This document shows positions 15,918 through 60,115 of a stretch of DNA of 64,000 nucleotides, piece after piece. The stretch is from Aulosira sp. ZfuVER01. GTDB lineage: Bacteria; Cyanobacteriota; Cyanobacteriia; Cyanobacteriales; Nostocaceae. A program made the translations under genes and the position numbers. The notes under the pieces are model-generated. The model saw only the letters and a list, made by a program, of their open reading frames with translations, did not search any database and was not told the DNA's origin. How positions within the stretch are numbered: the stretch's first letter is position 1; each line of letters opens with the position of its first letter. The DNA lies in assembly GCA_034530615.2 (NCBI GenBank), contig JAVRCV020000015.1, positions 160,001 through 224,000 of the forward strand, read 5' to 3'.

Positions 15918-16008
15918 GTTAAGTAGGCAGTCTCGATAAAAATGGGCATGGGGCATCTGAAAATAGCTGAAATAAGCCAGATTTAGATGCCCAAAGTCGC
16001 ATTGCAAT

Positions 16009-16260
16009 CCGATGCAATTCAATTGCAGGGCGATGCATTAACATAACAAGCCGATGCAATTCAATTGCAGGGCGATGCATTAACATAACAAGCCGATGCA
16101 ATTCAATTGCAGAGCAATGCATTAACATAACAAGCCGATACAATTCAATTGCAGAGCGATGCATTAATATAACAAGCCGATGCAATTTAATTGCAGGGCG
16201 ATGCATTAATATAACAAGCCGATGCAATTCAATTGCAGGGCGATGCATCAACATAACAAG
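16009..16260. repeat. Tandem array of 6 x 42 bp (two alternating 21-bp subunits, CGATGCA core)
   Basis: CCGATGCAATTCAATTGCAGGGCGATGCATTAACATAACAAG starting at 16009, 16051, 16093, 16135, 16177, 16219 with few substitutions. Confidence 0.95.
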
Positions 16261-17030
16261 CCACTCCACGTCTACGCATTGTCATATCAATTTGTTGTCT
16301 GCCATTTGCCACACCACTGACACTGTTGGCAAAAGTGATACAAAGGCACATACAAAAATATTACAAATAAAAGCTGCAATGCCTGCTCGGTCTTTCACTT
16401 TCTGCGGTACATCTACCGTTCTCAGGTCGAAAAGAGTTTTATCTTGTTTTGGAGTTAGAAATACTCTTAAACAGCTGCCAATACATCTGTCACATTGGTA
16501 AATACATCAACCCCATTTACTGAATCTTCACAGGGTTTAAATTTTTACATTGTTCTACTTACTAAAAATTTTAATTTTAAAGATTTGATGAACGAAGTTG
16601 CTAAAACTGGACAAAAGCATCTGCATCAGCTAATTTTTAATCTTGTTTGAGAATTGGTTTTGATTTGCTTAAGTGTAGCTATTAGAAATATCTTATTTTC
16701 TGGAGTTATTCTCATCACTTTTGGGGAGTAAATATGAAAATTTAAATCCGTCGCTTTTATTAGTCAAAGCGTTATTATTTCATTGCTAAAAAATTTTTAA
16801 ATGTAGGAAGAGTCCAGATAAAGATACCGTTGGCGAAACATTTATAAATGCTGTAAATTTTTGTGCTGTCGCGAGAATCTGCTAACGAAAATTTCCAAAA
16901 GCTACTCTTCCAATAAATTCGCCAACCTTATCGCATCCCAGTTATATACCTTAATTATTCCTTTTTTATGATTACCACGATAGGAATAACATGACAACTC
17001 AAATACTGCTTTTAACCAAGGGAAAGTAAG

Positions 17031-55700: not shown

Positions 55701-56168
55701 ATGGCAGATACTCAAGTCAGCGCAAAACTTTCCGCAGCAGATAGAGAAGCGGTGATGCAAGCTATTAGTACTATTCGGCAAAAGTTACCGTTTTTGATTG
55801 ATTTGTCTACTGAGGAACGTAAAGCTTTACCCAAGCTGGGGGATAAGAGTCGGGCGTTTGTCAGTAAGGCGTTGGAAATAGCTGCACAAAATCCTGATTT
55901 CTTACCGCGTTCTTTTGATGTGGATGAAATGCGCCGAGATATTGAATTATTTGAAGCTTTGTATCCGATTTTGTTGTCGTTGACACAATTGCAAGAACTG
56001 GTGGATGATACTTCTGTGGCTGTTGGCAGTGAAGCTTATGCGGCGGGGTTGTTGGTATATAACTATGCCAAAGCTAGTGGTAAAGGCGCTGGTTTAGATT
56101 CAATGGTTGATGATTTGGGGCGAAGATTTGCCCGGAAAGCGAAAAAAGTGCAACCACAAACCTCGTAA
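55701..56168 (+). CDS. Hypothetical all-alpha protein (155 aa) with basic C-terminus
   Basis: Clean ATG ORF; LPFLIDLS.EERK.LPKLGDKS..FV.KAL, GSEAY..L.VY..AK pattern; no catalytic motif recognised. Confidence 0.85.
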   Translation: MADTQVSAKLSAADREAVMQAISTIRQKLPFLIDLSTEERKALPKLGDKSRAFVSKALEIAAQNPDFLPRSFDVDEMRRDIELFEALYPILLSLTQLQELVDDTSVAVGSEAYAAGLLVYNYAKASGKGAGLDSMVDDLGRRFARKAKKVQPQTS

Positions 56169-56178
56169 TTTGAGAAAT

Positions 56179-56430
56179 TAACTCGACGCTTTTAGATAAA
56201 AACATAAATTTTGAGCTTCTGAGCTTGGGTGTTTCAGTTTTAAGTGAAAAACTCCGAGTCAGAAGCTTAAATTTTGCAGTTGTAAGTGAGAATGTTTTGG
56301 TTTGAAGTGAGAAGGTTTTCGTTTCAAACGAGAACATTTTTGTTTTTAGTAAGAACGTTCTGGTTTGAAATCACAATAGTTTCGTTTTAAGTTAAAAGCT
56401 TTTCGTTTAATTGACTACCGTAAAGGTTTG
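56179..56430. repeat. Degenerate in-phase 21-bp repeat array (about 12 units)
   Basis: Units such as AAGTGAGAATGTTTTGGTTTG (56284), AAGTGAGAAGGTTTTCGTTTC (56305), AAACGAGAACATTTTTGTTTT (56326), TAGTAAGAACGTTCTGGTTTG (56347); gap-free columns A2, T12, G17, T18 each conserved in 11 of 12 units. Confidence 0.8.
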
Positions 56431-56626
56431 ACAAGAGAACACCGAGAATAATAGCGGTTATTACGGAGCTAATGAGCGAATAGAACCCCGAATTTTTAGA
56501 GAAGTTGGGGTTCTGAATCCTTATAAGTTTTTAAAAACAGAGAACTAAATCTTTTTGAATCCGAAATGTGTAAGGCTCACTGAGTAGTTATCTTATATGT
56601 ATTAGAGCTTACACCTGAATCTTTTC

Positions 56627-59600
56627 ATGAATCCTCAGAATAAGCCCAAGAGTTTACAGGATATTCTCAAACAACGTCAGCAATCAAGCTTTGTAGGTCG
56701 AGAGGAACAAGTTAATCTATTTCGCCAAAATCTAGAATTACCTTTAGACGACTCTCGCCGACACTTTTTATTTAATGTTTGGGGTCAAGGAGGAGTAGGT
56801 AAAAGTACACTGCTGCGTCAGTTTAGCCAAATTGCGTCTGGAGCGAAAATGATCGCGGCTCTTACTGATGAAGGTGAAAAAACTGTACCAGAAGTCATGG
56901 GTCGTCTGGCGGAACAGTTGGAACAGCAAGGTCATAAGCTGGCACAGTTTACAGAACGCTACAAAGTTTATCGTCAGAAGCGCCAGGAATTAGAAACCGA
57001 TCCCGAAGCACCGCAAGGTTTCTCGGCTTTTGTGGGCAAAACTGTAGCGAAAGCCGGAATGGGTATGGCTAAACAAGTTCCGGGTGCTGGTGCTGTATTT
57101 GGCTTAATCAATGAAGATGCTATTACTACCCAAGCCGGAGAATGGGCGGCTTATGTTGCGAAAAAATTAACCAATAAAGACGAAATTCTCTTAGTCCAAG
57201 AACCTGTAGAAGTCCTGACTCCCTTATTTTTAGAAGATATTTCTAAAATTGCCCAAAAGTCTGGTCTTGGGTTGTTCTTTGATACTTATGAACGCAGCGC
57301 CGAATTTCTAGATAACTGGCTCAGGGAAATTATAGATGGTCGCCACGGTGAAGTACCTCTCAATATATTGATAATTATTGCCGGTCGGCAAGAATTAGAT
57401 AAAAACCATTGGGCAATTTATGAGGGGTTAATAGTTCGTTTCCCTTTAGAACCATTTACAGAAGCAGAAGCCCAACAATATCTCACCCGTAAGGGAATTA
57501 CTAACAGTCGGGTGATTGAAGTAATTTTACGTCTTTCTGGAAATTTACCTTTGTTAGTTGCCACATTGGCGGCGGAAACTCCAAGTGACCCCAGTCAAGT
57601 AGGCGATCCTAGCGGTACAGCAGTAGAACGCTTCTTAAAATGGATTGATGACTCCAAGCGGCGACAATTAGCTGTAGATGCTGCACTTCCCTTGTCTTTA
57701 AATCGGGATGTTTTGGCTAAATTGCGCGGAGAGGAAGACGCGGATGGTTTATTTAGCTGGCTGAAAGAAATGCCATTTATTGACGAACGCACTGATGGTT
57801 GGGCTTATCATGATGTCGTCAAAACGCAAATGCTACGCCACAAGCGGCTTTTGTCACCGCAAAGTTGGGCTGATTTGCATGGTAAGTTAGCCGACTACTA
57901 CGACAACTTGCGAAATAATTTACGCCTGGAAGAAGACAAAAAACAGCGCGATCCTGTTTGGCAAAGTTACACCCTCAATGTTTTGTATCACGGTTTATGT
58001 CAGTCACCACAGAGAAGCTTACCTGCTGCTTTAAATGAATTTCTCGCAGCACTGAAAAATCAATATTCTTTTGCTAAACGCTGGGCAGAAAGAATGATAC
58101 AAGCAGGTAAAGATACAGATGTAGCTGAAATTCAGCGTTGGGGTGACAAGTTAGCCAATGGCTTAAAAGCTTATAACGAGAAACAGTATGAAGTTGCGGC
58201 TGAAATGTTCACAGCCTTGTTGAACAATACCTTTATTGAAGTCAAGTGGCGTGCAGTAGCTTTAGACTGGCGTGGTGAGGTTTACACCCAATCAAATCAA
58301 TACTCTAAAGCTTTAGAAGATTTAACGGAAGCTATCAAGTTAGCTCCAGATGACGCTGAGTATTTATCAGATCGAGGTAAAACTTATCGCTTAATGGAGC
58401 GTTATGAGGAATCACTGCAAGATTATAACCGTGCTATTGAACTCAATCCTAAATACAACCGAGCGATAGCCAATCGCGGTCAAACTTACAAAGCAATGGA
58501 GCGTTATGAGGAATCACTGCAAGATTATAACCGTGCCATTGAACTTAACCCCAAATATGATTGGGCGATCGCCAATCGCGGTGAAACTTACCGCTTAATG
58601 AAGCAATATCAGGAAGCACTGCTGGATTTCGAGCGCGCTATTGAAATTAATCCCAAATCTGATTGGGTGATCGCACTTCGTGGTTAAACTTACCGCTTAA
58701 TGGAGCGATATCAGGAAGCACTGCTGGATTTCGAGCGCGCTATTGAAATTAATCCCAAATCTGATTGGGTGATCGCACTTCGTGGTTAAACTTACCGCTT
58801 AATGGAGCGATATCAGGAAGCACTGCTGGATTTCGAGCGCGCTATTGAAATTAATCCCAAATCTGATTGGGCGATCGGACTTCGAGGTGAAACTTACCGC
58901 TTAATGCAGCAATATCAGGAAGCACTGCTGGATTTTGACCGTGCGATTGAACTTAATCCCAAATCTGATTGGGCGATCGCCAGTCGCGGTCAAACTTACA
59001 GAGCAATGAAGCGATATCCCGAAGCACTGCTGGATTTTGACCGAGCCATTGAACTTAATCCTAAATCCGATCGGGCGATCGCCAATCGAGGTGAAACTTA
59101 CCGCTTAATGAAGCAATATCAGGAAGCACTGCTGGATTTTGACCGTGCGATTGAACTTAATCCTAAATCCGATCGGGCGATCGCCAATCGAGGTGAAACT
59201 TACCGCTTAATGAAGCAATATCAGGAAGCACTGCTGGATTTTGACCGTGCGATTGAACTTAATCCCAAATACGATTGGGCGATCGCACTTCGAGGTGAAA
59301 CTTACCGCTTAATGCAGCGATATCAGGAAGCACTGGTTGATTTCGACCGCGCTATTGAACTTGACCCCAACTATGATTGGGCGATCGCCAGTCGTGGTCA
59401 AACTTACAGAGCAATGGAACGATATCAAGAAGCACTAGTTGATTTCGACTATGCAATTGAACTTAATCCCAAACTTGATTGGGCGATCGCACAACGCGGG
59501 CGAACTTACAGCGCAATGGCGCGATATGAAGAAGCACTGCTGGATTTTGACCGTGCTATTGAACTTGACCCCAAATATGATTGGGTGATCGCACAACGCG

Positions 59601-60115
59601 GTCAAACTTATGATTTGATGCAACTTTATACAGAAGCACTCCAGGATTTTGATCGCGCAATTGAACTTAATCCTAAATATGATTGGGCAATTTATAGAAG
59701 AGGTGAAATTTATTTGCTGTTGAAAGACTACAAGCAAGCTCTTGCAAATTTCAATCGTGCTATAGAGTTAGAACCTAATGATACTTGGTATTTTTATGAT
59801 CGAGCTTTAGCTTACCAAGCTCTCCAGCAAGAACAAAAAGCAAAAGATGACTTTAATATTGCTATACAACTGGCTCAAGAAAAATATCAAAAAAATTCTC
59901 AAGACTGGCGCAATACTTTTAATCTGGCTCTTTACTATTTGACTTCTGGAGATATTGAACAATCTGAAAGTATTTATAAATATATTTTGTCAATGAGGCT
60001 TCCTGCTGATATTATTCGTGAGGCTATCCGTGATATAGATATTTTTCTAACTATTTTTCCAAATTACGAGTCAGCTATATCTATGCGTCAGTTATTACAA
60101 TCTTCCTTGACATGA
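56627..60115 (+). pseudogene. STAND/AAA_16-like NTPase with TPR repeats (NLR-like), interrupted by two in-frame TAA codons
   Basis: FVGRE, Walker A GQGGVGKS, Walker B LFFDTYE, GNLPL; ORFs 56627-58687 and 58802-60115 share a frame; TAA at 58685 and 58787 replace repeat codon GAA/CAA. Confidence 0.85.
58373..59800 (+). repeat. About 14 near-identical 102-bp coding repeats (34-aa TPR)
   Basis: RGETYRLM..YQEALLDFDRAIELNPK.DWAIA unit with strict 102-bp period. Confidence 0.92.

Follow-up and report, generated by a model that had tools for sequence, protein, structure and literature searches.

A family of small proteins paired with doubly palindromic 21-bp arrays, and their putative array binding by predicted rod-shaped dimers

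The locus and the geometry of its array

The window analysed here (the whole stretch of 64,000 nucleotides taken from contig JAVRCV020000015.1 of Aulosira sp. ZfuVER01) contains a gene for a small orphan protein followed by an array of short repeats (Table 1). This locus is flanked by two Uma2 genes, has a STAND-TPR gene downstream, and encodes a protein whose closest named homologues come from Calothrix, Tolypothrix and Nostoc. An earlier inspection of the letters alone (the sequence-only reading) had described twelve 21-mers without gaps, starting at 56179 and 10 nt past the TAA of the gene, all different from one another, with A2, T12, G17 and T18 each kept in 11 of 12 units; the description was reproduced, and A8 and T19 proved to be kept in 11 of 12 units likewise. 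The periodicity is significant, with autocorrelation values of 0.52, 0.56 and 0.59 at lags of 21, 42 and 63 (z = 7.8, 8.9 and 9.2, respectively, against 300 dinucleotide shuffles). When the entire window was scanned for periodicity the sole higher score belonged to another array near 16,000, and TRF reports only positions 56284-56369 of the array studied here. The phase of the twelve units holds, but the first and the last of them fit the family matrix poorly (1.6 and -9.7 bits). The two palindromes within each unit and the two long inverted repeats had been overlooked in the sequence-only reading.

Table 1. Features of the locus (positions refer to the window).
Feature	Position	Strand	Remarks
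Gene for a 155-aa all-helical orphan protein	55701..56168	+	Predicted antiparallel homodimer
Non-coding array	56179..56430	.	21-bp period, two dyads per unit, 10.5 bp apart
Array core	56195-56404		10 well-fitting units, scored with the family matrix
Long inverted repeat	56206..56275	+	Gene-proximal, made of array units; conserved in orthologues from Nostocales; a possible mRNA 3' hairpin
Second inverted repeat	56291..56338	.	In the variable distal part of the array
STAND-type ATPase-TPR gene	56627..60115	+	Two in-frame stops; recurrent neighbour of the family, candidate associate only of the gene-array system

Behind the array lies a short inverted repeat (56482-56514), similar pieces of which occur elsewhere in the genome. 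The STAND-TPR gene carries in-frame TAA codons at 58685-58687 and 58787-58789, at equivalent positions of two identical TPR units of 102 bp; the gene may have been broken recently, or the stops may be an artefact of the assembly. The array near 16,000 (16005-16262) has a 42-bp period and a third type of motif that recurs many times in the genome; it has no adjoining family gene and is crossed by a 111-aa antisense frame.

Throughout the family the repeat unit can be written roughly as GTTY-N-RARN plus NNGAA-NN-TTYNN, with axes of symmetry at positions 5 and 15.5. Pairing across these dyads averaged 0.51, compared with 0.41 in units whose columns had been permuted, and in 44 of 47 arrays it was higher than the mean of the null, reaching the top 5% in 27; in the window array, it was matched by 2 of 100 permutations. 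Examination of the unit junctions in 55 arrays showed that 663 of 678 are exact and that the remaining 15 are slips, every one of which adds bases, with related arrays sharing slips (a loss of 4 nt at locus L077 falls outside the range of the slip test). A count of arrays with mixed phases mostly reflected a 7-nt sub-period. The idea that 21 bp stands for two helical turns gains support from the spacing of the dyads and from slips that only lengthen the period, and a period that stays at 21-22 would suit two full DNA turns of 10.5-11 bp each.

An alternative is that the array derives from heptad-repeat coding, either decayed or antisense. An 87-aa antisense ORF (56074-56337) does overlap the proximal array, while 32 of 90 arrays keep at least one open frame. 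The other 58, however, are closed by stops in all six frames, slips of one base occur, one clade has a 22-bp unit, and no Pfam match was found; in the window, the antisense TKTFSL frame meets a stop inside the unit at 56368, exactly as had been claimed. The coding explanation, to which we attach practically no probability, is already refuted for the family, and the array is non-coding, in agreement with the view that the sequence-only reading had taken.

Distribution of the protein family, its arrays and their gene-less copies

The protein belongs to a large family. A word search retained 1137 relatives out of 1218 candidates and the full search yielded 2677 clusters at 50% identity; the nearest clusters of the Atlas belong to Cyanobacteriota, Bacteroidota and Pseudomonadota, none of them being a usable named cluster. 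The distribution of the gene is patchy, with 20 of 301 cyanobacterial genomes and 59 of 151 genomes in the bacterial family carrying it, with 1-7 matches each. No family match for the window protein was found in Pfam, NCBIfam, PADLOC or PHROGs; one homologue gave a weak PHROG match (E = 0.055), and 116 members of the family gave merely scattered weak matches in Pfam, DUF6261 being absent among the families matched at E 0.05. A longer homologue, which constitutes weak evidence, came from a crowded search. In this genome we also observed a paralogue with an internal stop (G000:C22:147-611) and a gene fragment (G000:C79:85738-85857), and broken gene copies are common in relatives.

To what extent the gene and the array go together was examined in two sets of loci. 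The first comprised 139 loci, reduced to 114 after removing partial genes, duplicates and short flanks, and in 107 of these a segment with a 21- or 42-bp period lies within 1 kb downstream of the gene; on the upstream side such a segment is present at 5 of 111, and among random 1-kb windows of this genome 47 of 2000 contain one. The second comprised 82 loci, reduced to 60 (12 were removed for short flanks, the others as partial or duplicate), and gave a downstream array in 51 of 60 (8 of 12 among the loci below 60% identity) and an upstream one in 1 of 56; two of its misses carry a 22-bp array. Some loci of the second set repeat those of the first, and loci and genomes are related, so that these counts overstate the independent support. 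Homologues do have downstream periodic arrays, and the gene-array pairing is family-wide.

The arrays begin at a median of 23 nt past the stop codon and have a median length of 254 bp, and the linkage persists where other repeats insert between gene and array. At an orthologous site, the gene and the array are jointly absent in 3 of 5 relatives examined. A phased GAG-N7-C(T/A)C is common to Methylomonas, a clade about 45% identical to the query, cyanobacterial paralogues and high-GC hosts; Thiodictyon (L140) has no clear array (score 14). Two loci (L043 and L044) have the array upstream of the gene rather than downstream, a third (L176) has it between a partial copy of the gene and the intact gene, and in one clade (L142/L143) the period is 22 bp, the units resemble hairpins and a terminator-like stem separates the gene from its array. 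The position and strand of the array are free relative to the gene. At two loci of a distant paralogue clade (L045 and L047) the period of the array is purely 42 bp and the copies hardly differ. Co-variation of the array with the protein phylogeny, which had been proposed as a check, is present in that arrays loosely follow the protein tree, but it is not tight, as one array motif was found in two separated protein clades. Both of these clades have K148, L139 and I90 (two events on a weakly resolved tree), and we regard these residues as a lead only to a possible correlate of array type.

The recurrence of STAND genes beside the family raises the question of whether the system is an accessory of STAND/NLR-type conflict loci, in which a coated array would silence or insulate the STAND gene or be itself a guarded structure. 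Of 160 loci, 26, spread over several protein clades, have the window-type STAND-TPR gene no more than 1 kb downstream, other NB-ARC/NACHT genes also adjoin family loci, and in this genome a P-loop neighbour of STAND type was found at 6 of 30 arrays compared with 99 of 2250 gaps (using a crude motif, with one hit probably an ABC ATPase). Moreover, residues ~1-66 of the family are fused in frame to window-type STAND genes (L279:1008-5040, L280, L281 and L021); these fusions sit behind a RidA-like gene, and the intact gene and its array then follow in three loci. The fused piece has nevertheless lost the conserved basic motif and its position upstream of an intact copy in those three loci is duplication-like; at most loci the neighbours are unrelated, PADLOC gave no match, and the STAND genes and the family may merely share variable islands. 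We consider such an accessory role very improbable, and the link may be a functional one or a consequence of shared variable islands.

The sequence-only reading did not foresee gene-less copies all over the chromosome, and the array is not unique: this genome has 101 segments with a 21- or 42-bp period, 13 of which fit the window motif (two of them beside full-length genes) and 17 that of the distant paralogue clade. The gene-less copies are mostly intergenic and frequently stand right after stop codons. A 50-letter pattern gave 15 clusters in this genome and none in the shuffled genome. In a survey confined to cyanobacterial genomes, at least 10 motif matches were found in 18 of 20 gene-bearing genomes and 2 of 281 others of the same sample (15 of 15 and 1 of 21, respectively, within the bacterial family), a contrast inflated by kinship and by circularity, the pattern having been built from gene-linked arrays that themselves add to the genome counts. 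Three genomes (G197, G094 and G015) have only the distant paralogue, about 48% identical, yet contain 14-569 matches to the window motif, and in two others (G199 and G228), which have 57 and 10 matches, the search revealed no gene of the family, possibly reflecting recent gene loss or the presence of another reader. The specificity is therefore not one-to-one.

Copies so dispersed could belong to a selfish repeat system like REPIN-RAYT, the protein spreading the arrays with little benefit to the host. Consistent with such spreading are the near confinement of gene-less copies to gene-bearing genomes, the variety of gene neighbours, the number of gene matches per gene-bearing genome and a gene-less site at which, of the 9 relatives retaining both flanks, 3 have the array and 6 lack it. 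Two other gene-less sites, however, are occupied in 5 of 5 relatives that retain the two flanks (heptamer repeats inflating the score of one of them), the proximal part of the window array has no copy elsewhere in this genome, the protein gave no transposase, nuclease or recombinase match, and relatives amount to none in viral contigs or phages and one in plasmids. Selfish spreading is in our opinion improbable. In a paralogue clade (L013, L014, L022, L023 and L128) we observed REP-like palindromes and an ORF downstream; the N-terminus of this ORF presumably resembles that of RAYT transposases, with no Pfam match at 1e-5 for L128.

Putative binding of the array by a predicted rod-shaped dimer

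A prediction of structure and oligomeric state, which the sequence-only reading had proposed, gave an all-helical monomer with no strands (pLDDT 91) and a helix of 52 residues (74-125), and an antiparallel homodimer with ipSAE of 0.77 (pLDDT 82) compared with 0.00 for the best of three controls; the mark used for dimers was reached by 20 of 30 solved homo-pairs and by 1 of 23 single chains. Different dimer runs share at least 87% of their contacts, which in the model are antiparallel around residue 98. Neither a PDB sequence search (nothing below E 0.08) nor Foldseek against PDB and viral models (no match at E 0.001) yielded a relative, and the best VIA hit (Z = 5.3) fell on generic helices; the fold searches indicate neither a new fold nor a different one. 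The idea of a virus-like coat or nucleocapsid was tried and found to be unsupported by these fold searches, with no relative among viral contigs or phages.

From the contact list we infer that the long helices would cross at residue 98 and that residues 32-57 of one chain would pack on residues 100-119 of the other. Such packing should bring the conserved basic stretches 40-49 and 124/141-146 together at both ends of the rod. The K or R residues at positions 40, 45, 49, 124, 142 and 145 are conserved; the tail of the window protein is basic, as had been noted, but the net charge of the protein is -1 (family median -2). The predicted rod would be ~72 A long (2 x 24 residues x 1.5 A, an arithmetic made on the contact list and not on coordinates), which nearly equals the 71 A spanned by 21 bp of B-DNA.

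Putting the model together with the geometry of the arrays, our favoured reading, held with moderate confidence, is one of binding to double-stranded DNA: predicted antiparallel rod dimers of the protein would line up end to end on the array and on its gene-less copies, one dimer per repeat. Under this model each end of the dimer would join residues 40-49 of one chain with residues 124-146 of the other, the two ends lying ~72 A apart. The dimer would be centred on one dyad, its ends over the dyads one turn to each side, and neighbouring dimers would meet at the other dyad in a continuous filament along one face of the array. Each array would thereby nucleate a stiff protein-DNA segment of 200-320 bp, and the genome would gain anything from ten sites to dozens that are addressed by sequence and act as architectural elements or roadblocks, the array beside the gene being one of them. 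Such sites may represent the cellular role of the system.

The alternative in which the array acts as RNA, forming long bulged hairpins that the dimer binds so as to stabilise or terminate the mRNA at its 3' end or to build a ribonucleoprotein rod, seems to us possible but doubtful; it would make the gene-less copies behind stop codons REP-like 3' elements. The sense RNA of the window array folds at -74.8 kcal/mol (z = -4.7), but the antisense strand has an identical z. Among the 47 gene-linked arrays, G.U exceeds A.C on the sense strand in 34, the sense strand is the more stable in 33, and the real order of units folds slightly better than permuted orders (34 below zero); the opposite skew, with A.C exceeding G.U, is nonetheless present in 11, and gene-less arrays between tandem genes, as judged from crude ORF calls, divide into 3 with sense G.U and 5 with sense A.C with no link to the direction of transcription. 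The 20-pair proximal stem is kept in 15 orthologues, largely via one-sided changes, many of them to or from G.U, and both of its arms change together between sub-lineages; against this, just 2 of the 20 pairs have changed on both sides, and the covariation term comes to -0.32. A further point against RNA is that template switching can make inverted repeats perfect with no need of selection. Proximity to the stop codon and the hairpin-like units of the 22-nt clade also speak for RNA, while the arrays that lie upstream of the gene or behind the terminator-like hairpin speak against it, and a period of 21 suits B-DNA more than A-form RNA according to established geometry. RNA contigs (taken from four runs of a single study on relatives roughly 90% alike) cover the gene and the array, but one X2 contig also covers the divergent upstream gene, and the contigs therefore reveal neither transcription nor strand nor ends. 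A scan for promoters and terminators remained at chance level. Even if the array is read as DNA, the proximal stem could serve as an mRNA 3' hairpin.

Extending the DNA-binding model, we tentatively propose an undescribed class of programmable chromosome scaffolds: the rod dimer of each paralogue would read its own two-turn palindromic code by means of its basic ends, polymerise on dozens of arrays and build a paralogue-specific "satellite chromatin" that organises the nucleoid or silences STAND neighbours. The residues that track array type (K/R148, L/M139, K/R41 and K150) would in such scaffolds constitute the specificity code.

Relation to known repeat systems

Taking the results from the loci, the genomes and the models together, the gene-array system is real and family-wide and, in the literature searched, undescribed as a system, its array binding being putative. 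This large family is unnamed, with no counterpart in Pfam and no clear match by fold. In the search made (CC-licensed articles of PMC, and bioRxiv) we found no paper linking the protein to such arrays; subscription papers and supplements may bear on the novelty.

In the ParR-parC and TubR-tubC systems and in Rep iterons, helically phased short repeats lie beside the gene of a small dimeric protein that coats them cooperatively. Helically phased repeats adjoin the gene here as well, and by analogy the protein and its arrays probably function in the manner of a centromere or iteron array and the protein bound to it. The fold searches gave no clear match, of ribbon-helix-helix or winged-helix type or otherwise, for the all-helical model with its 52-residue helix. 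The system differs in being chromosomal, with several paralogues and many gene-less arrays; among the called neighbours (66 of 78, at 40 loci) there was no constant partition NTPase and no replication or origin neighbour.

Type III toxin-antitoxin systems (ToxIN, CptIN and TenpIN) also consist of a small gene and a tandem non-coding array, whose unit differs between subfamilies. In these systems the repeats precede the toxin gene and a terminator stands between the two; in the family described here the array is mostly downstream, the 21-nt unit is doubly palindromic and gene-less arrays are common, no match to RNases of the ToxN, CptN or TenpN type was found, and Rfam gave only sub-threshold matches to miRNA hairpins. 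The guide arrays of CRISPR, TIGR-Tas and VIPR are built from a constant repeat and unique spacers and work with a Cas, Nop or RAMP protein. As the sequence-only reading had maintained, the array is not CRISPR-like: conserved and variable columns are interleaved and symmetric, and no Cas, Nop or RAMP family match was found.

REP/REPIN-RAYT systems are palindromic extragenic repeats tied to a cognate gene, according to the part of the article available (Bertels and Rainey 2011, PMC3116915), and they share with the arrays of this study the dispersal of palindromic copies through gene-bearing genomes. On the same partial basis, REPINs are inverted doublets, in contrast to the gap-free runs of ~9-15 units found here, and the RAYT protein is a tyrosine transposase. 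A tyrosine (HUH) transposase was indicated neither by a Pfam match in 116 members nor by an NCBIfam match for four proteins, and the model has no strands. The available portion of PMC6749651 contains 0 matches for cyanobacteria, Nostoc and "21 nt".

One of the closest counterparts is a class of repeats that has been published and left unexplained. As far as the accessible text goes, Subirana and Messeguer (2021, PMC8161180) describe bacterial non-coding tandem repeats of 20-21 nt, constant in size and variable in sequence, with several families per genome and Cyanobacteria included, and these authors point to two turns of DNA and postulate a polymerising protein or small RNAs. In that text no protein or linked gene is named for the repeats, and "palindrom" and "Nostoc" have 0 matches in the main text. 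Like the published repeats, so far as they can be known from it, the arrays of the window family are non-coding, keep a unit of 20-21 nt while the sequence changes (22 in one clade) and form several families per genome; unlike them, they are linked to a specific protein family and have two dyads per unit, the comparison being one of features. The pairing would offer a candidate partner for these repeats, for which the puzzle, as it stands in the accessible text of PMC8161180, is why the length is kept at 20-21 nt while the sequence changes. Linking a protein family to a DNA geometry turns this puzzle into an experiment with one protein and one oligonucleotide. Should the model be true, the gene-array system would represent a new way of building sequence-addressed protein-DNA filaments, with natural orthogonal pairs.
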